Shown in pieces: positions 9,841 through 34,293 of a DNA stretch of 64,000 bases. Position 1 is the stretch's first letter. Each line of letters starts with the position of its first letter. The DNA is from Escherichia coli (GTDB taxonomy: Bacteria > Pseudomonadota > Gammaproteobacteria > Enterobacterales > Enterobacteriaceae): assembly GCF_002854065.1 (NCBI RefSeq), contig NZ_CP024153.1; one strand, written 5' to 3'. Made by a program: the position numbers and the translations under genes. Under the pieces are notes generated by a model. The model had not been told where the DNA came from. It saw only the letters and a program-made list of their open reading frames with translations, and ran no database searches.

Positions 9841-9958
9841 GATGTCTAACTCCCAATTTGTGTAGGGCTTATTATGCACGCTTAAAAATAATAAAAGCAG
9901 ACTTGACCTGATAGTTTGGCTGTGAGCAATTATGTGCTTAGTGCATCTAACTTTGTTT

Positions 9959-10023: not shown

Positions 10024-10086
10024 TAACGCGCTTGCTGCTTGGATGCCCGAGGCATAGACTGTACAAAAAAACAGTCATAACAAGCC

Positions 10087-10768
10087 ATGAAAACCGCCAC
10101 TGCGCCGTTACCACCGCTGCGTTCGGTCAAGGTTCTGGACCAGTTGCGTGAGCGCATACGCTACTTGCATTACAGTTTACGAACCGAACAGGCTTATGTC
10201 CACTGGGTTCGTGCCTTCATCCGTTTCCACGGTGTGCGTCACCCGGCAACCTTGGGCAGCAGCGAAGTCGAGGCATTTCTGTCCTGGCTGGCGAACGAGC
10301 GCAAGGTTTCGGTCTCCACGCATCGTCAGGCATTGGCGGCCTTGCTGTTCTTCTACGGCAAGGTGCTGTGCACGGATCTGCCCTGGCTTCAGGAGATCGG
10401 AAGACCTCGGCCGTCGCGGCGCTTGCCGGTGGTGCTGACCCCGGATGAAGTGGTTCGCATCCTCGGTTTTCTGGAAGGCGAGCATCGTTTGTTCGCCCAG
10501 CTTCTGTATGGAACGGGCATGCGGATCAGTGAGGGTTTGCAACTGCGGGTCAAGGATCTGGATTTCGATCACGGCACGATCATCGTGCGGGAGGGCAAGG
10601 GCTCCAAGGATCGGGCCTTGATGTTACCCGAGAGCTTGGCACCCAGCCTGCGCGAGCAGCTGTCGCGTGCACGGGCATGGTGGCTGAAGGACCAGGCCGA
10701 GGGCCGCAGCGGCGTTGCGCTTCCCGACGCCCTTGAGCGGAAGTATCCGCGCGCCGGGCATTCCTGGC
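10087..10768 (+). pseudogene. intI1: intI1 class 1 integrase, 3'-truncated by IS26 (about 227 of 337 codons)
   Basis: [53 protein letters not shown]...; ORF runs into the IS26 terminal repeat at 10769. Confidence 0.9.
10174..10202 (-). promoter_or_regulatory. Integron Pc cassette promoter, TGGACA-N17-TAAACT (PcH1-type)
   Basis: Hexamers read on minus strand inside the intI1 5' region. Confidence 0.6.
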
Positions 10769-11588
10769 GGCACTGTTGCAAATAGTCGGTGGTGATAAAC
10801 TTATCATCCCCTTTTGCTGATGGAGCTGCACATGAACCCATTCAAAGGCCGGCATTTTCAGCGTGACATCATTCTGTGGGCCGTACGCTGGTACTGCAAA
10901 TACGGCATCAGTTACCGTGAGCTGCAGGAGATGCTGGCTGAACGCGGAGTGAATGTCGATCACTCCACGATTTACCGCTGGGTTCAGCGTTATGCGCCTG
11001 AAATGGAAAAACGGCTGCGCTGGTACTGGCGTAACCCTTCCGATCTTTGCCCGTGGCACATGGATGAAACCTACGTGAAGGTCAATGGCCGCTGGGCGTA
11101 TCTGTACCGGGCCGTCGACAGCCGGGGCCGCACTGTCGATTTTTATCTCTCCTCCCGTCGTAACAGCAAAGCTGCATACCGGTTTCTGGGTAAAATCCTC
11201 AACAACGTGAAGAAGTGGCAGATCCCGCGATTCATCAACACGGATAAAGCGCCCGCCTATGGTCGCGCGCTTGCTCTGCTCAAACGCGAAGGCCGGTGCC
11301 CGTCTGACGTTGAACACCGACAGATTAAGTACCGGAACAACGTGATTGAATGCGATCATGGCAAACTGAAACGGATAATCGGCGCCACGCTGGGATTTAA
11401 ATCCATGAAGACGGCTTACGCCACCATCAAAGGTATTGAGGTGATGCGTGCACTACGCAAAGGCCAGGCCTCAGCATTTTATTATGGTGATCCCCTGGGC
11501 GAAATGCGCCTGGTAAGCAGAGTTTTTGAAATGTAAGGCCTTTGAATAAGACAAAAGGCTGCCTCATCGCTAACTTTGCAACAGTGCC
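10769..11588 (+). mobile_element. IS26 copy 3
   Basis: 820 bp with both terminal repeats. Confidence 0.95.
10814..11536 (+). CDS. tnpA: IS26 transposase Tnp26 (Gly184 form)
   Basis: Identical 240-aa ORF. Confidence 0.95.
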   Translation: MLMELHMNPFKGRHFQRDIILWAVRWYCKYGISYRELQEMLAERGVNVDHSTIYRWVQRYAPEMEKRLRWYWRNPSDLCPWHMDETYVKVNGRWAYLYRAVDSRGRTVDFYLSSRRNSKAAYRFLGKILNNVKKWQIPRFINTDKAPAYGRALALLKREGRCPSDVEHRQIKYRNNVIECDHGKLKRIIGATLGFKSMKTAYATIKGIEVMRALRKGQASAFYYGDPLGEMRLVSRVFEM

Positions 11589-11628
11589 AGACAAAAGGCT
11601 GCCTCATCGCTAACTTTGCAACAGTGCC
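11589..11628 (+). repeat. Tandem second copy of the last 40 bp of IS26 (remnant of an earlier IS26)
   Basis: AGACAAAAGGCTGCCTCATCGCTAACTTTGCAACAGTGCC occurs twice in direct succession (11549-11588 and 11589-11628). Confidence 0.85.
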
Positions 11629-12137
11629 CCCTCCCGCACGATGATCGTGCCGTGATCGAAATCCAGATCCTTGACCCGCAGTTGCAAACCCTCACTGATC
11701 CGCATGCCCGTTCCATACAGAAGCTGGGCGAACAAACGATGCTCGCCTTCCAGAAAACCGAGGATGCGAACCACTTCATCCGGGGTCAGCACCACCGGCA
11801 AGCGCCGCGACGGCCGAGGTCTTCCGATCTCCTGAAGCCAGGGCAGATCCGTGCACAGCACCTTGCCGTAGAAGAACAGCAAGGCCGCCAATGCCTGACG
11901 ATGCGTGGAGACCGAAACCTTGCGCTCGTTCGCCAGCCAGGACAGAAATGCCTCGACTTCGCTGCTGCCCAAGGTTGCCGGGTGACGCACACCGTGGAAA
12001 CGGATGAAGGCACGAACCCAGTGGACATAAGCCTGTTCGGTTCGTAAACTGTAATGCAAGTAGCGTATGCGCTCACGCAACTGGTCCAGAACCTTGACCG
12101 AACGCAGCGGTGGTAACGGCGCAGTGGCGGTTTTCAT
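11629..12137 (-). pseudogene. intI1: intI1 class 1 integrase, 3'-truncated at a different point (about 170 codons retained)
   Basis: Same N-terminus as the other intI1, ends ...[12 protein letters not shown] then IS26-end sequence. Confidence 0.9.
12022..12050 (+). promoter_or_regulatory. Integron Pc cassette promoter, TGGACA-N17-TAAACT (PcH1-type)
   Basis: Hexamers read directly in the 5'-CS. Confidence 0.6.
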
Positions 12138-12281: not shown

Positions 12282-12779
12282 ATGAACTCGGAATCAGTAC
12301 GCATTTATCTCGTTGCTGCGATGGGAGCCAATCGGGTTATTGGCAATGGTCCTAATATCCCCTGGAAAATTCCGGGTGAGCAGAAGATTTTTCGCAGACT
12401 CACTGAGGGAAAAGTCGTTGTCATGGGGCGAAAGACCTTTGAGTCTATCGGCAAGCCTCTACCGAACCGTCACACATTGGTAATCTCACGCCAAGCTAAC
12501 TACCGCGCCACTGGCTGCGTAGTTGTTTCAACGCTGTCGCACGCTATCGCTTTGGCATCCGAACTCGGCAATGAACTCTACGTCGCGGGCGGAGCTGAGA
12601 TATACACTCTGGCACTACCTCACGCCCACGGCGTGTTTCTATCTGAGGTACATCAAACCTTCGAGGGTGACGCCTTCTTCCCAATGCTCAACGAAACAGA
12701 ATTCGAGCTTGTCTCAACCGAAACCATTCAAGCTGTAATTCCGTACACCCACTCCGTTTATGCGCGTCGAAACGGCTAA
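12282..12779 (+). CDS. dfrA12: DfrA12 trimethoprim-resistant dihydrofolate reductase (cassette)
   Basis: 165 aa MNSESVRIYLVAAMGANRVIGNGPNIPWKIPGEQKIFRRLTEGKVVVMGRKTFESIG... Confidence 0.93.
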   Translation: MNSESVRIYLVAAMGANRVIGNGPNIPWKIPGEQKIFRRLTEGKVVVMGRKTFESIGKPLPNRHTLVISRQANYRATGCVVVSTLSHAIALASELGNELYVAGGAEIYTLALPHAHGVFLSEVHQTFEGDAFFPMLNETEFELVSTETIQAVIPYTHSVYARRNG

Positions 12780-12890
12780 CCATTCCGTCAACGGGACGCC
12801 AAAATGCTGCGCATTTTGGTTCCCTCCGCTGCGCTCCGGCTCTCGTTACGTCCAACGTTAGCACCACTGAAACCCAGCTTTATTTAGCTC

Positions 12891-13181
12891 ATGTTTATTC
12901 AAACGGCATTTAGCTTTTCAGGCGTTATTCAGTGCCTGTTTTGCCTTTTTTCCGGGCTTCGCCTGCATGGGCTGCGCAGGTTTTCAGTCTTTTTGGCCTC
13001 TAGCCCTTGCGTAGCAAGCGCAAGCAGCTATCGTTTTTGCAGTGCTGTGCCGCCTCGGTGGCGCAGCGTTTTTTCACGGTTAGCGCCCGTCGCCAAATTC
13101 AAGTTATCCGTTTTGGCTTCTGGTTCTAACATTTCGGTCAAGCCGACCCGCATTCTGCGGTCGGCTTACCTCGCCCGTTAG
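12891..13181 (+). CDS. gcuF: gcuF/orfF gene cassette of unknown function
   Basis: 96-aa ORF between dfrA12 and aadA2, the position of the classic array. Confidence 0.75.
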   Translation: MFIQTAFSFSGVIQCLFCLFSGLRLHGLRRFSVFLASSPCVASASSYRFCSAVPPRWRSVFSRLAPVAKFKLSVLASGSNISVKPTRILRSAYLAR

Positions 13182-13186
13182 ACATC

Positions 13187-13978
13187 ATGAGGGAAGCGGT
13201 GACCATCGAAATTTCGAACCAACTATCAGAGGTGCTAAGCGTCATTGAGCGCCATCTGGAATCAACGTTGCTGGCCGTGCATTTGTACGGCTCCGCAGTG
13301 GATGGCGGCCTGAAGCCATACAGCGATATTGATTTGTTGGTTACTGTGGCCGTAAAGCTTGATGAAACGACGCGGCGAGCATTGCTCAATGACCTTATGG
13401 AGGCTTCGGCTTTCCCTGGCGAGAGCGAGACGCTCCGCGCTATAGAAGTCACCCTTGTCGTGCATGACGACATCATCCCGTGGCGTTATCCGGCTAAGCG
13501 CGAGCTGCAATTTGGAGAATGGCAGCGCAATGACATTCTTGCGGGTATCTTCGAGCCAGCCATGATCGACATTGATCTAGCTATCCTGCTTACAAAAGCA
13601 AGAGAACATAGCGTTGCCTTGGTAGGTCCGGCAGCGGAGGAATTCTTTGACCCGGTTCCTGAACAGGATCTATTCGAGGCGCTGAGGGAAACCTTGAAGC
13701 TATGGAACTCGCAGCCCGACTGGGCCGGCGATGAGCGAAATGTAGTGCTTACGTTGTCCCGCATTTGGTACAGCGCAATAACCGGCAAAATCGCGCCGAA
13801 GGATGTCGCTGCCGACTGGGCAATAAAACGCCTACCTGCCCAGTATCAGCCCGTCTTACTTGAAGCTAAGCAAGCTTATCTGGGACAAAAAGAAGATCAC
13901 TTGGCCTCACGCGCAGATCACTTGGAAGAATTTATTCGCTTTGTGAAAGGCGAGATCATCAAGTCAGTTGGTAAATGA
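13187..13978 (+). CDS. aadA2: AadA2 streptomycin/spectinomycin adenylyltransferase ANT(3'')-Ia family (cassette)
   Basis: 263 aa MREAVTIEISNQLSEVLSVIERHLESTLLAVHLYGSAVDGGLKPYSDIDLLVTV... Confidence 0.93.
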   Translation: MREAVTIEISNQLSEVLSVIERHLESTLLAVHLYGSAVDGGLKPYSDIDLLVTVAVKLDETTRRALLNDLMEASAFPGESETLRAIEVTLVVHDDIIPWRYPAKRELQFGEWQRNDILAGIFEPAMIDIDLAILLTKAREHSVALVGPAAEEFFDPVPEQDLFEALRETLKLWNSQPDWAGDERNVVLTLSRIWYSAITGKIAPKDVAADWAIKRLPAQYQPVLLEAKQAYLGQKEDHLASRADHLEEFIRFVKGEIIKSVGK

Positions 13979-15174: not shown

Positions 15175-15552
15175 TTAGCTTTTTATTTGTTGAAAAAAGC
15201 TAATCAAATTGTTGTCGGGATCAATTACTGCAAAGTCTCGTTCATCCCACCACTGATCTTTTAATGATGTATTGGGGTGCAAAATGCCCAAAGGCTTAAT
15301 ATGTTGATATAATTCATCAATTCCCTCTACTTCAATGCGGCAACTAGCAGTACCAGCAATAAACGACTCCGCACCTGTACAAACCGGTGAATCATTACTA
15401 CGAGAGCGCCAGCCTTCATCACTTGCCTCCCATAGATGAATCCGAACCTCATTACACATTAGAACTGCGAATCCATCTTCATGGTGAACCAAAGTGAAAC
15501 CTAGTTTATCGCAATAAAAACCTATACTCTTTTTAATATCCCCGACTGGCAA
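15175..15552 (-). CDS. bleO: Bleomycin-binding protein, glyoxalase/VOC fold (BleO-like, Gram-positive type)
   Basis: 125 aa MPVGDIKKSIGFYCDKLGFTLVHHEDGFAVLMCNEVRIHLWEASDEGW... matches recalled pUB110-type Ble. Confidence 0.75.
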   Translation of the reverse strand: MPVGDIKKSIGFYCDKLGFTLVHHEDGFAVLMCNEVRIHLWEASDEGWRSRSNDSPVCTGAESFIAGTASCRIEVEGIDELYQHIKPLGILHPNTSLKDQWWDERDFAVIDPDNNLISFFQQIKS

Positions 15553-15648
15553 TGCCGGGATAGACTATTATTCTCCCCGGAGCCACTACGCTGACCCGGT
15601 TGATTTCAGAGGTAAGGGAAAAGGCGACGTTGCGCCTGTGGAACAAAC

Positions 15649-16470
15649 GGCACTGTTGCAAAGTTAGCGATGAGGCAGCCTTTTGTCTTATTCAAAGGCC
15701 TTACATTTCAAAAACTCTGCTTACCAGGCGCATTTCGCCCAGGGGATCACCATAATAAAATGCTGAGGCCTGGCCTTTGCGTAGTGCACGCATCACCTCA
15801 ATACCTTTGATGGTGGCGTAAGCCGTCTTCATGGATTTAAATCCCAGCGTGGCGTTGATTATCCGTTTCAGTTTGCCATGATCGCATTCAATCACGTTGT
15901 TCCGGTACTTAATCTGTCGGTGTTCAACGTCAGACGGGCACCGGCCTTCGCGTTTTGAGCAGAGCAAGCGCGCGACCATAGGCGGGCGCTTTATCCGTGT
16001 TGATGAATCGTGGGAATCTGCCACTTCTTCACGTTGTTGAGGATTTTACCCAGAAACCGGTATGCAGCTTTGCTGTTACGACGGGAGGAGAGATAAAAAT
16101 CGACAGTGCGGCCCCGGCTGTCGACGGCCCGGTACAGATACGCCCAGCGGCCATTGACCTTCACGTAGGTTTCATCCATGTGCCACGGGCAAAGATCGGA
16201 AGGGTTACGCCAGTACCAGCGCAGCCGTTTTTCCATTTCAGGCGCATAACGCTGAACCCAGCGGTAAATCGTGGAGTGATCGACATTCACTCCGCGTTCA
16301 GCCAGCATCTCCTGCAGCTCACGGTAACTGATGCCGTATTTGCAGTACCAGCGTACGGCCCACAGAATGATGTCACGCTGAAAATGCCGGCCTTTGAATG
16401 GGTTCATGTGCAGCTCCATCAGCAAAAGGGGATGATAAGTTTATCACCACCGACTATTTGCAACAGTGCC
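15649..16470 (-). mobile_element. IS26 copy 4 (822 bp; two 1-bp insertions)
   Basis: Both terminal repeats present; extra A at about 16010 (GGGAATCTG vs GGGATCTG) and extra T at about 15953 (GCGTTTTGAGC vs GCGTTTGAGC). Confidence 0.95.
15701..16425 (-). pseudogene. tnpA: IS26 tnpA disrupted by frameshift (split into 144-aa and 107-aa ORFs; Asn184 form)
   Basis: ORFs 15991-16425 and 15701-16024 together cover Tnp26 with a frame change between them. Confidence 0.85.
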
Positions 16471-16584
16471 TAAAAATCGACCATACAGAGAGGGAAACCA
16501 CCGGAGTGGTGGGAAAAGCAGAAAGGCTCACGTGGCATAAGGCGTGGACAATGGTATCGACTGGTTTTTCAATTTCCTATACGT
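16471..16584. repeat. 114-bp fragment identical (inverted) to the 3'-side end of the IS91-family element at 23324-23437
   Basis: Reverse complement of 16471-16584 matches 23324-23437; abuts the IS26 end on one side and GTTC-containing flank on the other. Confidence 0.8.
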
Positions 16585-16673
16585 GAACTATTGAAGTAAT
16601 CAATCAAATTTTATAGGCTGATAGCCAAGTAACAACCACCAATGATATGCCAGGTAAAATCAGGGGACGTAAA

Positions 16674-18110
16674 ATGAGTACTCTTGATGTTCAGAAGCTC
16701 AAGGATGATGCCGTCGAATGGGCCTTAACTCATGGTGTTGCTTTCAAGGAATCGTCGTATTCCGCAGTGCATACCCCGTTTACCCTGACACCAACACCTA
16801 TCAGCCGTAAATCCTATCAGTACTTAAAGAATGCAACAGGAATACTCAGCAAATTAATCTATTCAGTTTCTGAGGATCATGATTTTTTGTACTCTGCGAT
16901 TTATCCCATCAAGGCCGGGAATGCCTTCTTTTCAGCCCTCCTGAACATGCATCAACAAATCCATTCATCATCAAGGCATGCTCCTCGATTACCATTACTC
17001 ATTATGCGTAGCGACTTTATGGATGATAATCGTGATGGGTTCAGGCTTATAGAGTTCAATGGTATAGCTGCAGGAATGGGGCCGTTTGGTCAGCGGATAC
17101 ATGATCTGCATCACTATCTACAACGGCAATATCCCGCTGTCTTTTCTGATTTATCGAATCAGGCAACAGGGGCGCTTGTCGACAATCAAGCGATCGAAGG
17201 GTTATCAGCAGCGATTTGTCAGGCAACTTGCAGAATTAAGCAGGAGTTCGGAGACCCCGGCCCTGCCAGGTTCCTGATGATTGTGCAGGAGAATGAAAAT
17301 AATGTGTTTGATCAACACTTGCTTGAGCTCGCCCTCCAGCAAAAAGGAATCGAAACGCATCGCAGGACTTTTCGTGAACTGCATAATCAATTGAGTACAG
17401 GCGCCGACAACAGGCTCATTCTCGAGGGTGTAGGCCCACTTGATACCGTCTACTTACGTGCCGGATATCAGTATTCTGATTATGAAGCATTCAATATCGA
17501 TGAGCAGGAGTGTTGTCAGGCGCTGATGGCGACCCGAGTATTCATTGAGCAGCACCGGGTTGCAGTGAACGCCACAGTTGGCCAGCAACTGGCGACCAGC
17601 AAGCGAGTACAAATGCTGCTCTCGCAATTGGGTTACGACGAGTTTGTCGCATTTGGATTAACACTGCAGGAAGCTAAAATAGCAAAAACGATACTGGGTG
17701 AGATGTTACCCATCAGCCCGGATAGTATCAACCTTGCAAAAGAGTCTCCTTCGGAAACCTGGGTTCTCAAAAATCAGGGTGAAGGCGGGGGGCATTGTCT
17801 GTTTGGTGCGGATATCCTGACAAAACTGACGGAACTCACTCCACAACAATATCAGTCCTGGTCGCTGATGCGCCGTTTACACCCTCAGCCCCGAGCTATG
17901 CCCACCTTGATTGTGCGTAAAGGGGAGTTGCATAAGGTGAATGATTTGATAAGCGAACTTGGAATGTTCTCCGTGCAGACAGATAACAATCCCTCCAGTG
18001 CTGAGCACAGTTTTGCTGGATATCTAATTCGTAGCAAATCAGCTGAATCGACAGAGGGAGGGGTCCATAGTGGACAAGGTGTTTTAGACTCGCTGGTATA
18101 CAGCGATTAG
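16674..18110 (+). CDS. Eukaryotic-type glutathione synthetase-like ATP-grasp protein (ORF track start 16647)
   Basis: Blocks resembling recalled human GSS: TPFTLTPT, IEFNGIAAGMGP, LMIVQENENNVFDQ...IETHRRTFREL, VYLRAGYQ, KNQGEGGGHCLFG. Confidence 0.7.
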   Translation: MSTLDVQKLKDDAVEWALTHGVAFKESSYSAVHTPFTLTPTPISRKSYQYLKNATGILSKLIYSVSEDHDFLYSAIYPIKAGNAFFSALLNMHQQIHSSSRHAPRLPLLIMRSDFMDDNRDGFRLIEFNGIAAGMGPFGQRIHDLHHYLQRQYPAVFSDLSNQATGALVDNQAIEGLSAAICQATCRIKQEFGDPGPARFLMIVQENENNVFDQHLLELALQQKGIETHRRTFRELHNQLSTGADNRLILEGVGPLDTVYLRAGYQYSDYEAFNIDEQECCQALMATRVFIEQHRVAVNATVGQQLATSKRVQMLLSQLGYDEFVAFGLTLQEAKIAKTILGEMLPISPDSINLAKESPSETWVLKNQGEGGGHCLFGADILTKLTELTPQQYQSWSLMRRLHPQPRAMPTLIVRKGELHKVNDLISELGMFSVQTDNNPSSAEHSFAGYLIRSKSAESTEGGVHSGQGVLDSLVYSD

Positions 18111-18527
18111 TCCCTTTCAAGGGGGCTGAAATCTGGTTATATGAAAGCATGCGGTAAGTGGTGTTTTAGCCCCAGTGGAGATGATGCTGTTTCTAGACTG
18201 AGTCGTAGTAAGCTAATAATAGTATTATAAATGAAGCCATGAGGGTATTTACAGGGCATATCTTATTAAGGGAACAACAGCAAAAACTGCTGCTATAAGA
18301 GGCTGCACCCAAAGTTCTTCAAGGTTCACATCATCGCTGCTGGGTCGATGCTGTTTCAGTTACGGGTCAATTTTCAATACCATTAGCTGTTCCTGTGACT
18401 ACGGTCATTACGCGCTGTCGACATCAATTTGTACAGCAAACAGTCTTAGCGTGGGATATTTAATGAGATGGTCACTCCCTCCTTCCCGGTACTATGCTGA
18501 GGATAGGCTTTCATTCGGAGAACTATC

Positions 18528-19532
18528 ATGGAAAACATTGCGCTCATTGGTATCGATCTGGGTAAAAACTCTTTCCATATTCATTGCCAAGATCGTCGCG
18601 GCAAGGCTGTTTACCGTAAAAAATTTACACGGCCAAAGTTAATCGAATTTTTGGCGACATGCCCCGCTACAACCATCGCAATGGAAGCCTGTGGTGGCTC
18701 TCACTTTATGGCACGCAAGTTGGAAGAGTTGGGGCATTTTCCTAAGCTGATATCACCACAATTTGTCCGTCCATTCGTTAAAAGTAACAAAAACGACTTT
18801 GTCGACGCCGAAGCTATTTGTGAAGCTGCATCGCGTCCGTCTATGCGTTTTGTACAGCCCAGAACTGAATCTCAGCAGGCAATGCGTGCGCTGCATCGTG
18901 TCCGTGAATCCCTGGTTCAGGATAAGGTAAAAACAACCAATCAGATGCATGCTTTTCTGCTGGAATTTGGCATCAGCGTTCCACGAGGAGCTGCCGTTAT
19001 TAGCCGACTGAGTACCCTTCTTGAGGACAATAGTTTGCCTCTATACCTCAGCCAGTTATTGCTGAAATTACAACAGCATTATCACTATCTTGTTGAGCAG
19101 ATTAAAGATTTGGAATCCCAGTTGAAACGAAAGTTGGACGAAGATGAGATTGGACAGCGCTTGCTGAGCATTCCCTGCGTCGGAACACTGACAGCGAGTA
19201 CTATTTCAACTGAGATTGGCGACGGGAAGCAGTACGCCAGCAGTCGTGACTTTGCGGCGGCAACAGGGCTAGTGCCTCGACAGTACAGCACGGGAGGTCG
19301 GACGACATTGCTGGGAATTAGTAAGCGAGGTAACAAAAAGATCCGAACTTTGTTGGTTCAATGTGCCAGGGTATTCATACAAAAACTGGAACACCAGTCT
19401 GGCAAATTGGCCGATTGGGTCAGGGATCTACTGTGTAGGAAAAGCAACTTTGTCGTCACTTGTGCTCTGGCAAACAAGCTGGCCAGAATAGCCTGGGCCC
19501 TAACGGCACGACAGCAAACTTATGTAGCATAA
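18528..19532 (+). CDS. IS110-family (DEDD) transposase/recombinase
   Basis: 334 aa MENIALIGIDLGKNSFHIHCQD... N-terminal RuvC-like DEDD character and C-terminal ...GISKRGNKKIRTLLVQCA... motif typical of the IS110 family. Confidence 0.85.
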   Translation: MENIALIGIDLGKNSFHIHCQDRRGKAVYRKKFTRPKLIEFLATCPATTIAMEACGGSHFMARKLEELGHFPKLISPQFVRPFVKSNKNDFVDAEAICEAASRPSMRFVQPRTESQQAMRALHRVRESLVQDKVKTTNQMHAFLLEFGISVPRGAAVISRLSTLLEDNSLPLYLSQLLLKLQQHYHYLVEQIKDLESQLKRKLDEDEIGQRLLSIPCVGTLTASTISTEIGDGKQYASSRDFAAATGLVPRQYSTGGRTTLLGISKRGNKKIRTLLVQCARVFIQKLEHQSGKLADWVRDLLCRKSNFVVTCALANKLARIAWALTARQQTYVA

Positions 19533-19807
19533 CGGCAGAAATACACCGGTTTAAAGAATCACTGATCTGGTTTTGCGAATACTGATATTGATGATACTAA
19601 CGGCCCACCGGCCTGTTGAGGAACCTGTAAAACGGAAAGGCTCATTGAAGCCGTATATTTTCTGGAGGTTCATCAGGCGCGGAACTCATCGAGGCGCGGG
19701 AATAAAATCCCATTCAGACGCCGGATAGATTCAAGCAAGCCAATTTATCGTCAAAATCGGTGTTGCAAAAACGGGAGTGACCATAGATTCCGTTTTCCAA
19801 GCGGACC

Positions 19808-19870
19808 CCGTGCTGTGTGGAAATCCGCCCACCTTGCCGGGCGCCGGTGCTGTGTGGAAATTCGCCCATC
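19808..19870. repeat. About 1.6 copies of the 37-bp repeat unit (inverted relative to the 56063-57150 array), just downstream of the truncated rep gene
   Basis: CCGTGCTGTGTGGAAATCCGCCCACCTTGCCGGGCGCCGGTGCTGTGTGGAAATTCGCCC is the reverse complement of the array unit. Confidence 0.75.
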
Positions 19871-19919
19871 TTCATGACAAAAATTTGTCAAATGACAGGC
19901 TCATGTGTGCTGATTTATG

Positions 19920-20601
19920 TCAGACGGGATTTTGCTTATCAATTATTGAGAACAGAAATTTTCCTGAATCATCAATACTATACTTAGCAAGTAAAGGTGT
20001 TTTCTCATTTATCTGCTTGAGAGCAGGATCAAGGAAAGATCGTTTCAACTCTGCCAAGTTCTTCTGTTGGGATTCCGGCAAAAGGAAACGGTCATTTAAC
20101 CAAGCATGAGTAGTAACCCATAAGCCTGAAGATTTGAATTGAGCAAGACTTTCATAAAGGCGGATCGTCCGTGGATTTCGAAGACTGCCACAATCGCGGA
20201 GCGAGTAGGTGGTGAACTGGTTCGTCAGGCCGTAAATGTACCGCAGGAGTTTATGGTTAAATTCGATTTCCCAGATACCACGAGCTGATCGGCTGCCAGC
20301 CTCTGTTAGCCAGGGGCGCGCGACGCAGTCAAAACTCCCTTCTTTCGGGTAAAAGATTACCGCAGAACGGCTTAACTCAAACACGCCTTCTTTAACATCC
20401 TTGATAGCCTGGTTACGGCTTACCTGAAAAATTTGCTGATAGTCAGCCACCTTTACTTTGAAAGTAGAGTCACCGAGTACAGCCATCTCATCATCATCTT
20501 CGCTTACTGAAGCTGTGAAATACGTCTGCATAAGACATAACCAGAGAACGCGCTTTGCTTTTAGCGAGAGGTAGTAAGCAGCTTCGGTAAGCTCGTTAGA
20601 C
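19920..20601 (-). pseudogene. Rep_3-family (RepE-like) replication initiator, N-terminally truncated by IS26
   Basis: ...NELTEAAYYLSLKAKRVLWL...IRLYESLAQF... parallels recalled F RepE ([20 protein letters not shown]...MRLYESLCQY); first 17 residues of the ORF come from the IS26 end. Confidence 0.75.
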
Positions 20602-21421
20602 GGCACTGTTGCAAAGTTAGCGATGAGGCAGCCTTTTGTCTTATTCAAAGGCCTTACATTTCAAAAACTCTGCTTACCAGGCGCATTTCGCCCAGGGGAT
20701 CACCATAATAAAATGCTGAGGCCTGGCCTTTGCGTAGTGCACGCATCACCTCAATACCTTTGATGGTGGCGTAAGCCGTCTTCATGGATTTAAATCCCAG
20801 CGTGGCGTTGATTATCCGTTTCAGTTTGCCATGATCGCATTCAATCACGTTGTTCCGGTACTTAATCTGTCGGTGTTCAACGTCAGACGGGCACCGGCCT
20901 TCGCGTTTGAGCAGAGCAAGCGCGCGACCATAGGCGGGCGCTTTATCCGTGTTGATGAATCGTGGGATCTGCCACTTCTTCACGTTGTTGAGGATTTTAC
21001 CCAGAAACCGGTATGCAGCTTTGCTGTTACGACGGGAGGAGAGATAAAAATCGACAGTGCGGCCCCGGCTGTCGACGGCCCGGTACAGATACGCCCAGCG
21101 GCCATTGACCTTCACGTAGGTTTCATCCATGTGCCACGGGCAAAGATCGGAAGGGTTACGCCAGTACCAGCGCAGCCGTTTTTCCATTTCAGGCGCATAA
21201 CGCTGAACCCAGCGGTAAATCGTGGAGTGATCGACATTCACTCCGCGTTCAGCCAGCATCTCCTGCAGCTCACGGTAACTGATGCCGTATTTGCAGTACC
21301 AGCGTACGGCCCACAGAATGATGTCACGCTGAAAATGCCGGCCTTTGAATGGGTTCATGTGCAGCTCCATCAGCAAAAGGGGATGATAAGTTTATCACCA
21401 CCGACTATTTGCAACAGTGCC
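20602..21421 (-). mobile_element. IS26 copy 5 (variant: Asn184 plus one synonymous change)
   Basis: 820 bp; ...KLKRIINATLGFKS... Confidence 0.95.
20654..21376 (-). CDS. tnpA: IS26 transposase Tnp26 (Asn184 form)
   Basis: 240-aa ORF; GGC to AAC at codon 184 relative to copies 1-3. Confidence 0.95.
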   Translation of the reverse strand: MLMELHMNPFKGRHFQRDIILWAVRWYCKYGISYRELQEMLAERGVNVDHSTIYRWVQRYAPEMEKRLRWYWRNPSDLCPWHMDETYVKVNGRWAYLYRAVDSRGRTVDFYLSSRRNSKAAYRFLGKILNNVKKWQIPRFINTDKAPAYGRALALLKREGRCPSDVEHRQIKYRNNVIECDHGKLKRIINATLGFKSMKTAYATIKGIEVMRALRKGQASAFYYGDPLGEMRLVSRVFEM

Positions 21422-21491
21422 GATTAGAGCACTATAAAGAACTAAAGAAATGAAGATACAAAGATACGAATATCTGAATAAAAACAGAAAA

Positions 21492-21612
21492 ATGCGTACC
21501 CATCCACCTTTCAGTGCGTACCCATCCACCTTTCAGTGCGCAGCCATCCACCTTTCATGAAAATTACAGTGCGTACCCATCCACCTTTCAGTGCGTACCC
21601 ATCCACCTTTCA
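21492..21612. repeat. Five direct 22-bp iteron-like repeats GTGCGTACCCATCCACCTTTCA (origin-like)
   Basis: Read directly; four near-perfect copies and one variant (GCGCAGCCATCCACCTTTCA). Confidence 0.75.
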
Positions 21613-21783
21613 TTTTGAGGCGACAAAAAACAACACCTATCTTAATGAAATTATTGATAAAAAAACTGGCACAATGTTTGCAGAATAAGTTAGAGTAAGT
21701 TAAAGATCTTAAAGTAGATCTACCGATCTACATTTAAGATCTTAAAAACAAGAAGTTTAATAAGCAAAAAAACACAAAAAATC

Positions 21784-21831
21784 TGTGGATAACTTTGCTC
21801 AAAACAAAAAATTCACACTACCTGTGGATAA
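21784..21831. promoter_or_regulatory. Two DnaA-box-like sites TGTGGATAA, 30 bp apart, in AT-rich DNA
   Basis: CTGTGGATAACTTTG appears twice; AT-rich context beside the iterons. Confidence 0.5.
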
Positions 21832-22474
21832 CTTTGCGTAAACCCAGAGGACAGATCACTCTGAACCAAGACAACCACACATAAAAACAATATGCTCGCT
21901 TTTTAACCACTGCGCGTAATTGCCTGATGTTATCCCTGTGCTGTTCCGCTTCCTCGCTCACTAACTCGCTACACTCGGTCGTTCGGCTGCGGCGAGCGGT
22001 GTCTCCTTTCTCAAAACCAGAAGAGTTCAGATCATACGATCCGTTGATTGATCCTTTTTGGATCTTTCACTGAGAAGCCCTGAATCGCTTTCTAACGCTT
22101 TGTTCGATGTAACCATGAGGAAAACCATGTGAAATCGAAAAAATCGCTCAGAATGCGATACAGCGCGTTTTAGAGGGTATTTACAAAACAGTCGTTGCCT
22201 TGAGGAAATTTTGATCAAGATTGAACTCCTATCCGGATCATGGCAACAGATCACAGCAACAAGGCCGCTAAAAAGCGTTGAGCGGCGTTAAAAACCGTTA
22301 AACCGTAGCTGACTATAACGAAACGGGAAAAAACGCTCAGAACGCGTTACAGAGCGTTTTAAGGCGATGTCGGAAAGAGCCATACCTCACCTGTTCTGAT
22401 GTTTTTCTCAACACAAGCACTTTTAAGAGTACTTTTAAAGATGCTATTATGCCAATAAGACAAGCGGAGGACTT

Positions 22475-22726
22475 ATGAGCTATCAAATTCTGACAACCAC
22501 AGCGGCCAGTATTACTGACCTGAAAAAAAATCCTATGGGAACCGTAGCTGAAGGTGAAGGGGACGCTGTTGCGATCCTGAACCGAAACGAACCGGCGTTC
22601 TATTGCGTTCCACCAAAACTTTACGCCTACTATCGGGAACTCGCTGAAGATGCTGAGTTAAACGCTGTTGCTGATGAGCGCATGAAAAACCCGGAAATTG
22701 TGAAGGTTAACCTGGATGACCTATGA
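22475..22726 (+). CDS. Phd/YefM/StbD-type antitoxin
   Basis: 83-aa ORF overlapping the downstream RelE-like gene by 11 bp; typical antitoxin size and arrangement. Confidence 0.7.
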   Translation: MSYQILTTTAASITDLKKNPMGTVAEGEGDAVAILNRNEPAFYCVPPKLYAYYRELAEDAELNAVADERMKNPEIVKVNLDDL

Positions 22727-22997
22727 ACTGGCTTTTGACCGCAGAGCACTGAAGGAATGGCAGAAACTCGGCCACACCATCCGTGAACAATTCAAAAAGA
22801 AGCTGGCAGAACGGCTGGAAAATCCACGCGTACCCGCAGCCCGGTTACATGGTCATGCTGATCGCTATAAAATCAAACTTCGTGCATCTGGCTACAGACT
22901 TGTATATCAAGTCATTGATGAGAAAGTCGTTTTACTCGTTATTGCTGTTGGAAGAAGGGAAAGCAGCGAAGTTTATCAGATTGCAGATATGCGCTGA
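22716..22997 (+). CDS. RelE/StbE/ParE-family toxin
   Basis: 93 aa MTYELAFDRRALKEWQKLGHTIREQFKKKLAERLENPRVPAARLHGHADRYKIKLRASGYRLVYQVIDEKVVLLVIAVGRRE, characteristic RelE/StbE pattern. Confidence 0.8.
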   Translation: MTYELAFDRRALKEWQKLGHTIREQFKKKLAERLENPRVPAARLHGHADRYKIKLRASGYRLVYQVIDEKVVLLVIAVGRRESSEVYQIADMR

Positions 22998-23183
22998 ACT
23001 GAAACCCGCCCCGTAATTCGCGGCTGCAGCCGCTCAGACGCGCAGATGCTACACACCGTCACGGCGTACCGTTCGCAAGCTTACGCGCTAACTGCGAAAG
23101 GCTAATTGCGTGTTGTTAGTCCGGTAATGGGCTTTGCAGGGAGGGGGGATGTCCCTGATCTTAATTAAGCTGGTTTGTTTCCG

Positions 23184-23325
23184 GGCACTGTTGCAAAGTT
23201 AGCGATGAGGCAGCCTTTTGTCTTATTCAAAGGCCTTACATTTCAAAAACTCTGCTTACCAGGCGCATTTCGCCCAGGGGATCACCATAATAAAATGCTG
23301 AGGCCTGGCCTTTGCGTAGTGCACG
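23184..23325 (-). mobile_element. IS26 fragment (142 bp of one end, internally truncated)
   Basis: GGCACTGTTGCAAAGTTAGCGATGAGG...GCGTAGTGCACG matches the IS26 end, then diverges. Confidence 0.9.
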
Positions 23326-25002
23326 TATAGGAAATTGAAAAACCAGTCGATACCATTGTCCACGCCTTATGCCACGTGAGCCTTTCTGCTTTTCCCACCA
23401 CTCCGGTGGTTTCCCTCTCTGTATGGTCGATTTTTATACCGTAACAGGCTGTTTTTTATACTTTCACCGATTCCCGGGCACACTTAGCCTGTGTCAGGCC
23501 GGCATATACCTCAGTAGACTGATATCCCGCGCGTTTTTCTTCAGCCCTGATACATTCAGCCCCGCAATGGCCCGGCGGTATACCATCCGGCAGCCACACA
23601 GCACGCATTCGAACGGGTCACGACTCAGGAACTGTTTCACCATTTGTGCATAGCACACTTTCGCCACTGGTTCCGGTTTATCCATCCCCAGTGCACGGTA
23701 CACCTGCGGCAGCTTCTCTCCACACACACGGTTGGCAAGGAACCCGAAGTACCTCACCATCTTAAAAAACTTCTCCGGGATGTGCTGTTTCAGCCTCGCG
23801 ACCAGCTCACGCTGTGTCAGCGTTTCCGTCGCCGTTTCTCCCGTTTTGTGGTCCAGGTAACGGAAGCTCAGGCTTGCCCCTCCGTTGTAATGAGCCAGTC
23901 GGGAAGCCGCTATTGGTGGCTTCTTCAGATAACGACCCAGGTAGCGTGCCGTATTCCGCCCTCCGGCTGTCTTCTTCGACATGTACACATGCCAGTATTT
24001 TCCGCCGGATTTCAGCACCAGGCTTCTCCACTGTGATTCCGTCGTGATATGTGACAACGACTCCGGCATTGCCATCCCCTCTGACCACGCTTTCAGAAGC
24101 AGCTGCCGCATATTCCACATCCACCGTGAACGCATCGCGTCTTTCAGGAAGCTCAGCTTTTTCCACTGACCATGCTTATTCAGACCTCCACAGGTTACAG
24201 ACACATGTACATGCGGATGCCAGTTGAGACGACGGCCATACGTGTGGATGGCGCAGAAGATACCGGGTTCCAGCCCCCGTTTTCGGGCGGCATACAGCAG
24301 ATTCTCCACCGCCAGACGGCACACGTCATTCAGCAGCCAGCGGTTGCTTTCGAACACCGGCCACAGCGTGTCCGGCAGGGTGAAGACCAGATGTACCCAG
24401 TCGCAGTCAGGAAGACGATTCAGCTGTGTTGCTGTCCACAGGTCTGTGGCCTTCTTTCCGCAGGACGGGCAGGCACGGCTGCCGCATGAGTTGGTCAGGT
24501 ACTTTACGTGCTGACAGTCCGGGTTATCACACCCGAACTCTTTTACACCCAGTATCCGTGTGCCGCAGGCCAGCATTTTGGTGACGGCTTCAACCTCGAT
24601 ATCGCGCAGACCGCCCGCATCCAGGAAGGACGTCCAGCACTGGTTGGCTGTGAACAGACGTTTCAGAGGGCGGGGAGTAAAACCGGACAACATGAGGATG
24701 GATTAAACCCCGGTATCCTGTAGCAGGGTAAGGGCTGCTGTATCGCCACGGCGCTTCAGGATGGAGGTCGTCACCATCGCAGGTGGTGGGTCCATGGGTT
24801 TGAGCATTTTCATCCAGTCCCATTCTCGTTGTGAGAGCTTCTCAGCACCAACAGAGAGCAGAACTGTATCGATACTTTTGCGGGTCAACATAAGGGGATG
24901 AGTCCTTAATAAAACAGGTCCTCAGAGCATACATATTCTGCGGGGCGTGCGGCAACAACAGGACGAACCGGGGCGGTTTTCAATTTGCAGCCGCCAGGCT
25001 GC
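23326..25002 (-). mobile_element. IS91-family rolling-circle element (IS1294-like, about 1.68 kb); boundaries approximate
   Basis: Single HUH/Y2-type transposase ORF plus small upstream ORF; length consistent with IS1294; one end duplicated at 16471-16584. Confidence 0.65.
23494..24693 (-). CDS. tnpA: IS91-family (IS1294-like) transposase
   Basis: 399 aa with Cys-rich zinc-binding N-terminus (CGTRILGVKEFGCDNPDCQHVKYLTNSCGSRACPSCGKK), HVH (HPHVHVSV) motif and C-terminal tyrosines typical of IS91-family Y2 transposases. Confidence 0.85.
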   Translation of the reverse strand: MLSGFTPRPLKRLFTANQCWTSFLDAGGLRDIEVEAVTKMLACGTRILGVKEFGCDNPDCQHVKYLTNSCGSRACPSCGKKATDLWTATQLNRLPDCDWVHLVFTLPDTLWPVFESNRWLLNDVCRLAVENLLYAARKRGLEPGIFCAIHTYGRRLNWHPHVHVSVTCGGLNKHGQWKKLSFLKDAMRSRWMWNMRQLLLKAWSEGMAMPESLSHITTESQWRSLVLKSGGKYWHVYMSKKTAGGRNTARYLGRYLKKPPIAASRLAHYNGGASLSFRYLDHKTGETATETLTQRELVARLKQHIPEKFFKMVRYFGFLANRVCGEKLPQVYRALGMDKPEPVAKVCYAQMVKQFLSRDPFECVLCGCRMVYRRAIAGLNVSGLKKNARDISLLRYMPA

Positions 25003-26448
25003 CGTGGTTCATGATAACTTCTGCTCTTCATCGTGCGGCCGACTGGGCTAAATCTGTGTTCTCTTCGGCGGCGCTGGGTGATCCTCGCCGTACTGCCCGC
25101 TTGGTTAACGTCGCCGCCCAATTGGCAAAATATTCTGGTAAATCAATAACCATCTCATCAGAGGGTAGTGAAGCCATGCAGGAAGGCGCTTACCGATTTA
25201 TCCGCAATCCCAACGTTTCTGCCGAGGCGATCAGAAAGGCTGGCGCCATGCAAACAGTCAAGTTGGCTCAGGAGTTTCCCGAACTGCTGGCCATTGAGGA
25301 CACCACCTCTTTGAGTTATCGCCACCAGGTCGCCGAAGAGCTTGGCAAGCTGGGCTCTATTCAGGATAAATCCCGCGGATGGTGGGTTCACTCCGTTCTC
25401 TTGCTCGAGGCCACCACATTCCGCACCGTAGGATTACTGCATCAGGAGTGGTGGATGCGCCCGGATGACCCTGCCGATGCGGATGAAAAGGAGAGTGGCA
25501 AATGGCTGGCAGCGGCCGCAACTAGCCGGTTACGCATGGGCAGCATGATGAGCAACGTGATTGCGGTCTGTGACCGCGAAGCCGATATTCATGCTTATCT
25601 GCAGGACAAACTGGCGCATAACGAGCGCTTCGTGGTGCGCTCCAAGCACCCACGCAAGGACGTAGAGTCTGGGTTGTATCTGTACGACCATCTGAAGAAC
25701 CAACCGGAGTTGGGTGGCTATCAGATCAGCATTCCGCAAAAGGGCGTGGTGGATAAACGCGGTAAACGTAAAAATCGACCAGCCCGCAAGGCGAGCTTGA
25801 GCCTGCGCAGTGGGCGCATCACGCTAAAACAGGGGAATATCACGCTCAACGCGGTGCTGGCCGAGGAGATTAACCCGCCCAAGGGTGAGACCCCGTTGAA
25901 ATGGTTGTTGCTGACCAGCGAACCGGTCGAGTCGCTAGCCCAAGCCTTGCGCGTCATCGACATTTATACCCATCGCTGGCGGATCGAGGAGTTCCATAAG
26001 GCATGGAAAACCGGAGCAGGAGCCGAGAGGCAACGCATGGAGGAGCCGGATAATCTGGAGCGGATGGTCTCGATCCTCTCGTTTGTTGCGGTCAGGCTGT
26101 TACAGCTCAGAGAAAGCTTCACGCTGCCGCAAGCACTCAGGGCGCAAGGGCTGCTAAAGGAAGCGGAACACGTAGAAAGCCAGTCCGCAGAAACGGTGCT
26201 GACCCCGGATGAATGTCAGCTACTGGGCTATCTGGACAAGGGAAAACGCAAGCGCAAAGAGAAAGCAGGTAGCTTGCAGTGGGCTTACATGGCGATAGCT
26301 AGACTGGGCGGTTTTATGGACAGCAAGCGAACCGGAATTGCCAGCTGGGGCGCCCTCTGGTAAGGTTGGGAAGCCCTGCAAAGTAAACTGGATGGCTTTC
26401 TTGCCGCCAAGGATCTGATGGCGCAGGGGATCAAGATCTGATCAAGAG
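25003..26448 (+). mobile_element. IS50L of Tn5, outside end (~85 bp) missing
   Basis: Homology to IS50 begins about 8 bp before the tnp start; ochre codon truncates Tnp as in IS50L; inside end CTGATCAAGAGACAG precedes aph(3')-IIa. Confidence 0.85.
25011..26363 (+). CDS. tnp: IS50L transposase (C-terminally short form ending ...GIASWGALW)
   Basis: 450 aa MITSALHRAADWAKSVFSSAALGDPRRTARLVNVAAQLAKYSGKSITISSEG... Confidence 0.9.
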   Translation: MITSALHRAADWAKSVFSSAALGDPRRTARLVNVAAQLAKYSGKSITISSEGSEAMQEGAYRFIRNPNVSAEAIRKAGAMQTVKLAQEFPELLAIEDTTSLSYRHQVAEELGKLGSIQDKSRGWWVHSVLLLEATTFRTVGLLHQEWWMRPDDPADADEKESGKWLAAAATSRLRMGSMMSNVIAVCDREADIHAYLQDKLAHNERFVVRSKHPRKDVESGLYLYDHLKNQPELGGYQISIPQKGVVDKRGKRKNRPARKASLSLRSGRITLKQGNITLNAVLAEEINPPKGETPLKWLLLTSEPVESLAQALRVIDIYTHRWRIEEFHKAWKTGAGAERQRMEEPDNLERMVSILSFVAVRLLQLRESFTLPQALRAQGLLKEAEHVESQSAETVLTPDECQLLGYLDKGKRKRKEKAGSLQWAYMAIARLGGFMDSKRTGIASWGALW

Positions 26449-26457
26449 ACAGGATGA

Positions 26458-27264
<807 letters not shown>

Positions 27265-27457: not shown

Positions 27458-28277
27458 GGCACTGTTGCAAATAGTCGGTGGTGATAAACTTATCATCCCC
27501 TTTTGCTGATGGAGCTGCACATGAACCCATTCAAAGGCCGGCATTTTCAGCGTGACATCATTCTGTGGGCCGTACGCTGGTACTGCAAATACGGCATCAG
27601 TTACCGTGAGCTGCAGGAGATGCTGGCTGAACGCGGAGTGAATGTCGATCACTCCACGATTTACCGCTGGGTTCAGCGTTATGCGCCTGAAATGGAAAAA
27701 CGGCTGCGCTGGTACTGGCGTAACCCTTCCGATCTTTGCCCGTGGCACATGGATGAAACCTACGTGAAGGTCAATGGCCGCTGGGCGTATCTGTACCGGG
27801 CCGTCGACAGCCGGGGCCGCACTGTCGATTTTTATCTCTCCTCCCGTCGTAACAGCAAAGCTGCATACCGGTTTCTGGGTAAAATCCTCAACAACGTGAA
27901 GAAGTGGCAGATCCCACGATTCATCAACACGGATAAAGCGCCCGCCTATGGTCGCGCGCTTGCTCTGCTCAAACGCGAAGGCCGGTGCCCGTCTGACGTT
28001 GAACACCGACAGATTAAGTACCGGAACAACGTGATTGAATGCGATCATGGCAAACTGAAACGGATAATCAACGCCACGCTGGGATTTAAATCCATGAAGA
28101 CGGCTTACGCCACCATCAAAGGTATTGAGGTGATGCGTGCACTACGCAAAGGCCAGGCCTCAGCATTTTATTATGGTGATCCCCTGGGCGAAATGCGCCT
28201 GGTAAGCAGAGTTTTTGAAATGTAAGGCCTTTGAATAAGACAAAAGGCTGCCTCATCGCTAACTTTGCAACAGTGCC
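27458..28277 (+). mobile_element. IS26 copy 6 (Asn184 variant); left arm of Tn6010-like oqx unit
   Basis: 820 bp with terminal repeats. Confidence 0.95.
27503..28225 (+). CDS. tnpA: IS26 transposase Tnp26 (Asn184 form)
   Basis: 240-aa ORF. Confidence 0.95.
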   Translation: MLMELHMNPFKGRHFQRDIILWAVRWYCKYGISYRELQEMLAERGVNVDHSTIYRWVQRYAPEMEKRLRWYWRNPSDLCPWHMDETYVKVNGRWAYLYRAVDSRGRTVDFYLSSRRNSKAAYRFLGKILNNVKKWQIPRFINTDKAPAYGRALALLKREGRCPSDVEHRQIKYRNNVIECDHGKLKRIINATLGFKSMKTAYATIKGIEVMRALRKGQASAFYYGDPLGEMRLVSRVFEM

Positions 28278-33473: not shown

Positions 33474-34293
33474 GGCACTGTTGCAAATAGTCGGTGGTGA
33501 TAAACTTATCATCCCCTTTTGCTGATGGAGCTGCACATGAACCCATTCAAAGGCCGGCATTTTCAGCGTGACATCATTCTGTGGGCCGTACGCTGGTACT
33601 GCAAATACGGCATCAGTTACCGTGAGCTGCAGGAGATGCTGGCTGAACGCGGAGTGAATGTCGATCACTCCACGATTTACCGCTGGGTTCAGCGTTATGC
33701 GCCTGAAATGGAAAAACGGCTGCGCTGGTACTGGCGTAACCCTTCCGATCTTTGCCCGTGGCACATGGATGAAACCTACGTGAAGGTCAATGGCCGCTGG
33801 GCGTATCTGTACCGGGCCGTCGACAGCCGGGGCCGCACTGTCGATTTTTATCTCTCCTCCCGTCGTAACAGCAAAGCTGCATACCGGTTTCTGGGTAAAA
33901 TCCTCAACAACGTGAAGAAGTGGCAGATCCCACGATTCATCAACACGGATAAAGCGCCCGCCTATGGTCGCGCGCTTGCTCTGCTCAAACGCGAAGGCCG
34001 GTGCCCGTCTGACGTTGAACACCGACAGATTAAGTACCGGAACAACGTGATTGAATGCGATCATGGCAAACTGAAACGGATAATCAACGCCACGCTGGGA
34101 TTTAAATCCATGAAGACGGCTTACGCCACCATCAAAGGTATTGAGGTGATGCGTGCACTACGCAAAGGCCAGGCCTCAGCATTTTATTATGGTGATCCCC
34201 TGGGCGAAATGCGCCTGGTAAGCAGAGTTTTTGAAATGTAAGGCCTTTGAATAAGACAAAAGGCTGCCTCATCGCTAACTTTGCAACAGTGCC
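33474..34293 (+). mobile_element. IS26 copy 7 (Asn184 variant); right arm of Tn6010-like oqx unit
   Basis: 820 bp with terminal repeats; same orientation as copy 6. Confidence 0.95.
33519..34241 (+). CDS. tnpA: IS26 transposase Tnp26 (Asn184 form)
   Basis: 240-aa ORF. Confidence 0.95.
   Translation: MLMELHMNPFKGRHFQRDIILWAVRWYCKYGISYRELQEMLAERGVNVDHSTIYRWVQRYAPEMEKRLRWYWRNPSDLCPWHMDETYVKVNGRWAYLYRAVDSRGRTVDFYLSSRRNSKAAYRFLGKILNNVKKWQIPRFINTDKAPAYGRALALLKREGRCPSDVEHRQIKYRNNVIECDHGKLKRIINATLGFKSMKTAYATIKGIEVMRALRKGQASAFYYGDPLGEMRLVSRVFEM

Follow-up and report, generated by a model that had tools for sequence, protein, structure and literature searches.

The 64,000-nucleotide stretch of Escherichia coli plasmid DNA analyzed here, hereafter the window, contains two IS1294-derived copies of the same sequence, which lie inverted relative to each other, 6.7 kb apart and each beside IS26 sequence, one of them next to a gshB-like gene. 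This arrangement raises the question of whether a single IS91-family insertion was rearranged on this plasmid into both copies, mobilizing the adjacent gene, or whether the two copies have separate histories. Our analysis favors the latter, with a probability of about 0.9: the window carries two separate IS1294 records, each in an IS26-bounded module of a kind widespread in plasmids of Enterobacterales.

A BLAST comparison of the intact element against the window revealed that positions 16471-16584 (plus strand) are the exact reverse complement of 23323-23436 (minus strand), with identity at 114/114 positions, which cannot arise by chance. The inverted duplicate reported in the preliminary description is therefore real and its left copy was placed exactly, while its right copy, given as 23324-23437, was one base too high. 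A repeat search returned longer arms, 16471-16590 and 23317-23436 (120 nt, 99% complementary); the extra six bases at 16585-16590 are not common IS sequence and consist of a GAAC target flank plus 2 bp facing internal IS26 sequence, a chance match at 5/6 positions.

The intact copy is IS1294, a member of the IS91 family, and occupies 23323-25010 on the minus strand (1688 bp). Its tnpA (23494-24693, minus strand) is an ORF of 399 aa that matches Pfam Y2_Tnp (1.2e-57) and Zn_Tnp_IS91 (1.9e-21), indicating an HUH/Y2-type transposase with an N-terminal zinc-binding domain, and NCBIfam transpos_IS91 (2.6e-92; 309.6 bits against a cut-off of 125). The final 721 bp of the element display 100% identity to JF274992, AB605179 and AP014566, in which the CDS is annotated 'IS1294 transposase', and the name is taken from these deposited annotated records rather than from an ISfinder entry. 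A second ORF inside the element, upstream of tnpA (24703-24891, minus strand; 62 aa), showed no family match and is labeled "hypothetical protein" in related records.

The limits of the element were obtained by comparing an empty with a filled site in IncI2 plasmids. At the empty site, the IncI2 backbone has ...GATAGAAC/TTGTTGATG, with TTGTTG directly after the break, whereas the filled site of pE2865-4 reads ...GATAGAAC-CACGGCAGCC...CCTATACGT-GAAC-TTGTTGATG. The comparison yields an insert of 1688 bp that includes one GAAC and is not accompanied by a target duplication; read against the empty site, the insert in pE2865-4 is GAAC-CACGGCAGCC...CCTATACGT. The IS1294 termini, GAACCACGGCAGCC... 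and ...TTTCCTATACGT, are not inverted repeats. Movement of IS1294 is thought to proceed by rolling-circle transposition.

The repeated 114 bp represent the oriIS end of IS1294 and lie downstream of the 3' end of tnpA. Since the tnpA ORF is on the minus strand, it is the end next to the 3' end of the transposase gene that is repeated, as the preliminary description had it. End polarity was surveyed in 11 distinct contexts, taken from the window, six plasmid loci and five genome contigs; the scan of genome contigs for the oriIS end gave five loci, which served for the flank survey and are too few for statistics. The tetranucleotide outside ...CCTATACGT was GAAC in seven contexts, CAAG in two, CAAC in one and GCAC in one, corresponding on the other strand to GTTC (seven) and CTTG (two), with the intact window copy (GTGC) and pE566 (GTTG) as the exceptions. 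This variability indicates that the tetranucleotide derives from the target. By contrast, GAAC (sense strand) before CACGGCAGCC was constant in 6/6 distinct contexts seen, indicating that it is part of the element, namely the terIS cleavage tetranucleotide. In the intact copy, the oriIS end accordingly lies at 23323 and the terIS end, with the element's own GTTC, at 25007-25010. In the published IS91-family scheme, oriIS is flanked by the target tetranucleotide (5'-GTTC for IS1294) and terIS contains a GTTC cleavage site; terIS is the left end, and oriIS lies within the final ~82 bp on the right (PMC13181058). The polarity observed here agrees with this scheme.

The preliminary description named two outcomes that would refute its reading, namely that the 114 bp are flanking or target DNA outside the IS, or that they form the terIS end. 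Nothing was found in favor of either, and both are so improbable as to be negligible: the sequence falls within the insert defined by the empty and filled sites, it terminates IS1294 in all 11 contexts, it lies downstream of tnpA beside a variable target tetranucleotide, and both PMC6052338 and PMC6288184 name it as the oriIS end. Folded as single-stranded DNA, the oriIS end forms a CCACC/GGTGG hairpin, with a total energy like that of shuffled sequences (z = -0.19).

The orphan copy (16471-16584, plus strand) comprises IS1294 bp 1575-1688 and is 100% identical to the corresponding part of the intact copy. Both of its boundaries are as first described: the oriIS side adjoins a canonical IS1294 target tetranucleotide at 16585-16588 (plus strand; GAAC, which is GTTC on the other strand), and on its inner side the copy is truncated by IS26, whose complete end lies at 16470. 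The truncating IS26 (15649-16470, minus strand; 822 bp) carries two 1-bp insertions relative to the 820-bp copies, leaving tnp26 frameshifted. Because the intact IS1294 is complete and has retained its own 114 bp, the orphan is the remnant of a second, older IS1294. The junction between IS26 and the 114 bp was found in at least 266 PLSDB records, and together with the gshB flank in at least 256; its carriers include IncN and IncHI2 multi-replicon plasmids, and the gshB module is bounded by IS26 in the IncN plasmid pABWA45_3 and in an IncHI2/IncN mcr plasmid. The presence of the same boundary in about 260 plasmids of several replicon types indicates that the truncation is older than this plasmid, and since the boundary between IS26 and IS1294 bp 1575 is identical wherever it is seen, it appears to have formed once, long before this plasmid.

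We infer the following order of events for the orphan. Insertion of the older IS1294 copy would have taken place 59 bp upstream of the gshB-like gene, on the 3' side of a GTTC. IS26 would then have entered it at bp 1574/1575, and the remaining 1574 bp would have been lost, probably via an IS26-mediated adjacent deletion or recombination between IS26 copies, leaving the residue IS26-(114 bp oriIS)-GAAC-gshB-(IS4321/IS5075)-ΔrepA(IncN)-IS26. PLSDB was searched for a longer IS1294 remnant beside gshB with a chimeric query that joined 600 bp from the interior of IS1294 to the 114 bp and to 486 bp covering the gshB flank and gene; no record reached at least 80% coverage of this query. In this search, pE566 alone extended beyond the IS into the flank, and it is the one uninterrupted related structure found in PLSDB, of the kind that the preliminary description proposed to look for.

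The gene beside the orphan (16647-18110, plus strand) encodes a gshB-like eukaryotic-type glutathione synthase (Pfam GSH_synth_ATP, 7.5e-61), whose start in related records corresponds to window position 16674. Its protein matched NCBIfam glut_syn_euk at 5e-70, but its 236.4 bits lie under the curated cut-off of 329.8. Downstream, an IS4321/IS5075-like IS110-family element of 1327 bp (18462-19788, plus strand) is inserted in a Tn21-family-like 38-bp inverted repeat, with which the gshB segment ends at 19809. The identity that the window shares with pE566 is lost exactly where this 38-bp sequence, GGGGTCCGCTTGGAAAACGGAAAATATCCCACGCTAAG, has its outer end; the sequence matches the Tn21 inverted repeat at about 29/38 positions. 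Inverted repeats of this type are targeted by IS4321/IS5075-type elements (PMC6052338). The module continues with a truncated IncN repA (19920-20601, minus strand), which is cut by IS26 and forms the right end of the ΔrepA-iterons-gshB-ΔIS1294 module (PMC6288184), and is closed on the right by IS26 at 20602-21421 (minus strand).

These boundaries bear on how gshB was mobilized. In the one-ended model for IS91-family elements, replication runs from oriIS to terIS and read-through takes along DNA beyond terIS (PMC13181058; PMC5043248). The gshB-like gene lies outside oriIS, on the side that is left behind, so that rolling-circle mobilization by IS1294, which the preliminary description had raised, is unsupported, and gshB was probably not mobilized by this IS1294. 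The termination of the segment at a Tn21-like inverted repeat instead suggests another vehicle, in that gshB may have traveled as the terminal part of a Tn3-family transposon; pE566 has one Tn21-like inverted repeat, and a second one bounding the gshB segment was not found there.

The intact IS1294 resides in a different module. An IncX1-like segment (21422-23183, plus strand), containing iterons (21487-21635), stbD (22475-22726) and the relE/parE-type stbE (22716-22997), is followed by an IS26 fragment at 23184-23322 (plus strand). This fragment comprises IS26 bp 1-139, the end downstream of tnp26, confirming that the intact copy adjoins an internal IS26 breakpoint. It ends in GTGC at 23319-23322 (IS26 bp 136-139), which constitutes a non-canonical tetranucleotide at the oriIS of the intact IS1294, and the adjoining bases 23323-23325 (ACG) are assignable to either IS26 or IS1294. 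On the terIS side lies IS50L of Tn5 without bp 1-92 (25011-26452, plus strand; inside end at 26434-26452), followed by aph(3')-IIa (26470-27264, plus strand) and a ble remnant cut by IS26 at 27458. Intact IS50 reads ...GGTAACGTTC/ATGATAAC in 48 records (100% identity over 292 nt), and the window resumes at ATGATAAC (25011) directly after the terIS GTTC, indicating that IS1294 inserted at the canonical GTTC of IS50, bp 89-92. IS50 bp 1-92 are absent, and IS26 bp 1-139 adjoin oriIS in their place. The stbE-ΔIS26-IS1294 junction was present in at least 140 PLSDB records and ΔIS26-IS1294-IS50 in at least 171.

An internal IS26 breakpoint is atypical for an IS26-mediated event, because such events occur at IS26 ends; the position of this one, exactly where oriIS is cleaved, makes an IS1294 event the better reading. 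In the mechanism that we propose, a second, intact IS1294 would have inserted 3' of the IS50 GTTC in a Tn5 remnant. The element would then have read through terIS and carried IS50-aph(3')-IIa as a one-ended unit into IS26 at GTGC, leaving IS50 bp 1-92 behind, and the far junction would later have been removed by an IS26 event, represented by the IS26 at 27458. The GTGC flank together with the position of terIS at the IS50 GTTC suggests such a one-ended rolling-circle move, to which we give slightly better than even odds. GTGC is a rare target of IS91 TnpA, used in 2/240 insertions, and keeps the T at position 2 (PMC13181058, Table 2).

The IS26(139)/oriIS junction, taken by itself, might also have arisen through microhomology-mediated illegitimate recombination, that is, a deletion between IS26 and the original GTTC flank. 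We regard this origin as possible, if rather doubtful. IS26 GTGCACGCAT and the target-plus-oriIS sequence GTTCACGTAT are alike at 8/10 positions, the junction has an ambiguity of 3-4 bp (C/ACG), and the reciprocal junction expected of an insertion into IS26 was found neither in PLSDB nor in metagenome contigs. The predicted far junction in IS26 is GTTC followed by ACGCATCACCTCAATACC (IS26 bp 140 onward); in PLSDB, terIS/GTTC was not contiguous with IS26 bp 140 onward, the only matches being non-contiguous ones in two pieces, and the exact pattern GTTCACGCATCACCTCAATACCTTTG had 0 matches in metagenome contigs. The predicted ancestral junction of IS50 bp 1-92 with oriIS likewise reached at least 80% coverage in no PLSDB record, had 0 exact matches in metagenomes and was present in 0/5,426 complete E. 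coli genomes. Against recombination, the breakpoint and the oriIS cleavage position agree exactly, apart from the 3-4 bp common to both sequences, GTGC with its T at position 2 is a documented rare target of a related transposase (PMC13181058), and a one-ended move also accounts for the loss of exactly IS50 bp 1-92.

A more sweeping alternative is the one put forward in the preliminary description, in which a single IS91-family insertion beside gshB was rearranged on this plasmid by IS26-mediated inversion or deletion into both copies, possibly with rolling-circle mobilization of the adjacent gshB by the element. The inverted orientation of the copies, their spacing and the IS26 beside each would suit this history, and IS1294 is known to co-mobilize adjacent DNA at 1-14% of events (PMC13181058). 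We nevertheless consider it very improbable. The intact copy is complete at 1688 bp, so that nothing was split, and the IS26|114-bp boundary recurs across plasmids of which many apparently lack a nearby intact IS1294. The position of gshB on the oriIS side and the end of its segment at a Tn21-like inverted repeat also argue against it. The window contains seven full IS26 copies, of the 820-bp element with 14-bp terminal inverted repeats, in addition to fragments of 139-142 bp and 40 bp; no matching 8-bp flanks, direct or inverted, were found among them, which speaks against an inversion linking the two IS1294 copies and is consistent with histories of recombination and deletion, as PMC6052338 also notes. 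Under our preferred reading of two separate records, the two modules would have come to share this plasmid through IS26-mediated or homologous recombination, neither having been produced from the other in place.

The orphan also raises the question of residual activity. In IS91, the last 82 bp with the flanking tetranucleotide are sufficient as an origin and TnpA works in trans (PMC13181058), and an intact IS1294 tnpA is present on the same plasmid, 6.7 kb from the orphan. By analogy, the 114-bp oriIS end with its intact GTTC flank could be a still-working rolling-circle origin, which we consider unlikely. If it were one, TnpA could cleave one strand at 16584/16585, and one-ended transposition could proceed from there to the left, across IS26 and on into bleO and the dfrA12-aadA2 class 1 integron, up to the next GTTC-type terminator and without carrying gshB. 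ΔIS1294 remnants would in that case represent hidden mobilization origins in hundreds of plasmids. Junction counts in PLSDB gave no natural evidence for an active orphan origin: the difference between the at least 266 records with IS26 plus the 114 bp and the at least 256 that also have the gshB flank lies within the noise of joined pieces, and hence offers no support for movement of the orphan to new flanks.

Both junctions are already-published scars, common in hundreds of resistance plasmids, and our findings leave the understanding of IS91-family elements unchanged. Their value lies in annotation and in tracing the IncN1 gshB and IncX1/Tn5 aph(3')-IIa modules, for which the boundaries IS26/IS1294 bp 1575, IS26 bp 139/oriIS and terIS/IS50 bp 93 are stable signatures by which the modules can be followed while IS26 redistributes them among resistance plasmids of the IncF, IncHI2, IncX and IncN types. 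To the published descriptions, our analysis adds the non-canonical GTGC flank of oriIS inside IS26 and the location of the terIS junction exactly at the native GTTC of IS50.

Among the closest known systems, the IncN1 segment is a counterpart of the orphan module. 'gshB ... and 114 bp of the oriIS end of IS1294' has been described before (PMC6052338; PMC6288184), and an 'IncN1 segment (ΔrepA-Iterons I-gshB-ΔIS1294)' was named with the same 114 bp (PMC6288184). This segment, as in pHN6DS2, pHNFP460-1 and pABWA45_3, shares with the window the same order and the same IS26-bounded 114-bp oriIS end, and window positions 16471-19872 are 98.7-99.9% identical to dozens of plasmids carrying it. The window differs in the IS4321/IS5075-type insertion, which is present in some relatives and not in all, and in the two 1-bp insertions of its flanking IS26; there is no essential difference.

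The region IncX1 stbD/E-ΔIS26-IS1294-ΔIS50-aph(3')-IIa-Δble-IS26 of pHNZY32, pC25 and pACN001-A has the same IS26/IS1294 boundary as the window, and window positions 23184-25600 are found at 100% identity in many plasmids with the IncX1 stbD/E-ΔIS26-IS1294 region, with no difference detected. Several of the plasmids nearest to the window have consecutive MG1974xx accessions, as expected if they come from one study, and are presumably the set of the study that described this boundary. That study reported the 'Same IS26/IS1294 boundary' beside IncX1 stbD/E, followed by IS50-aph(3')-IIa (PMC6052338), a layout that matches the window from 21422 onward. It proposed a history for the IncX1 segment that differs somewhat from ours, in which IS1294 mobilized IncX1 DNA (PMC6052338). 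The GTGC flank and the exact IS50 GTTC junction were not discussed in the published account.

A complete IS1294 in the setting of the orphan is seen in the IncI2 plasmid pE566-mcr-1.1 (NZ_MT536763.1), where oriIS lies against the same 69-bp flank as the orphan in the window and gshB is 99.9% identical to that of the window over 1812 bp. The two differ in a 1.6-kb fosL1-gnat segment located between the 69-bp flank and gshB in pE566-mcr-1.1, and in the oriIS tetranucleotide, which is CAAC there, one SNP from the GAAC of the orphan. Unlike the window, pE566-mcr-1.1 has neither the IS26 truncation nor the IS4321/IS5075 insertion. The ORF starting to the right of its IS1294 is not continued in the left flank, as a simple insertion into a small gene would require, and this intact IS1294 may be a secondary product of recombination across the orphan 114 bp instead of the ancestral state.

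For the module of the intact copy, the IS1294/IS1294b blaCMY-2 units of pJIE512b, pS10584 and p2735 provide a parallel, with the same element, oriIS as the outer boundary and cargo beyond terIS. One-ended IS1294-ΔISEcp1-blaCMY-2 units end at a GTTC look-alike (PMC5043248). In comparison with these units, the possible cargo in the window is IS50-aph(3')-IIa, the far end of any such unit has been lost to IS26, and oriIS is flanked by GTGC instead of GTTC or CTTG.

The 25 bp beside the orphan oriIS, the 114-bp IS1294 end next to the gshB-like gene (window 16585-16609, GAACTATTGAAGTAATCAATCAAA), displayed about 21/25 identity with positions 3715-3739 of plasmid pE2865-4, where IncI2 sequence adjoins an independent IS1294 insertion and opens a small reading frame (MPLIEYINKF...). 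This similarity was absent from the other IS1294 flanks compared. The likeness would reflect either the targeting of related genes at the same GTTC or common ancestry of the two flanks.

At its far end, the gshB segment is closed by a 38-bp Tn21-family-like inverted repeat (18432-18461 plus 19789-19809), which is split by an IS4321/IS5075-type element at 18462-19788. The homology of the IncI2 plasmid pE566-mcr-1.1 to the window ends exactly at the outer edge of this repeat. This suggests a Tn3-family transposon remnant with gshB as its terminal passenger. Directly upstream of this glutathione synthase gene, at the position corresponding to window 16650-16655, pE566-mcr-1.1 carries a 1.6-kb segment (5786-7381) with fosL1, which encodes a fosfomycin glutathione transferase, and a GNAT gene; in a review table, the context of fosL1 is given as Tn7L-like-fosL1-gnat-Tn7R-like, flanked by ΔIS91-like sequences. 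It may be functionally significant that a resistance enzyme dependent on glutathione occurs together with a glutathione synthase encoded on a plasmid.

The IS26 copies in the window fall into two alleles that differ at bp 207, 208 and 362 (TT/T versus CC/C) and occupy opposite parts of the window: one comprises the copies at 20602-21421, 27458-28277, 33474-34293 and 15649-16470, and the other those at 1981-2800, 5344-6163 and 10769-11588. Read on the tnp26 strand, the bp 207/208 difference changes GGC (Gly) to AAC (Asn), which would correspond to G184N, the IS26 variant of "enhanced activity". The copy at 15649-16470 is 822 bp long, and in comparison to the 820-bp copies it harbors one extra T at 15953 (TTTT for TTT) and one extra A at 16015 (AA for A), both insertions together breaking tnp26 into two ORFs; this IS26 could have been truly inactivated, or the extra bases could be assembly errors in homopolymers. 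On the integron side, the complete IS26 at 10769-11588 is directly followed by a 40-bp IS26 end fragment (11589-11628), a truncated intI1 (11610-12137, minus strand) and a dfrA12, orfF and aadA2/aadA3-like cassette region (12282-13978), with bleO at 15175-15552 (minus strand).

Within the intact IS1294, a 62-aa ORF (24703-24891, minus strand) stops 9 bp upstream of tnpA. Its product, WP_000957857.1, is annotated as "hypothetical protein" in many records and gave zero matches in NCBIfam. According to a 2026 paper, orf121 is unique to IS91; the small upstream ORF of IS1294 may therefore merit attention. In the related plasmid pSE124-1 (NZ_CP050707.1), the IncX1 ddp-rep-stbDE segment sits between two oppositely oriented IS1294 copies (8457-10140 and 15180-16863), one flanked by CAAG and the other by GTGC of IS26. 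This bracketing fits the published idea that IncX1 DNA was moved by IS1294 (PMC6052338).
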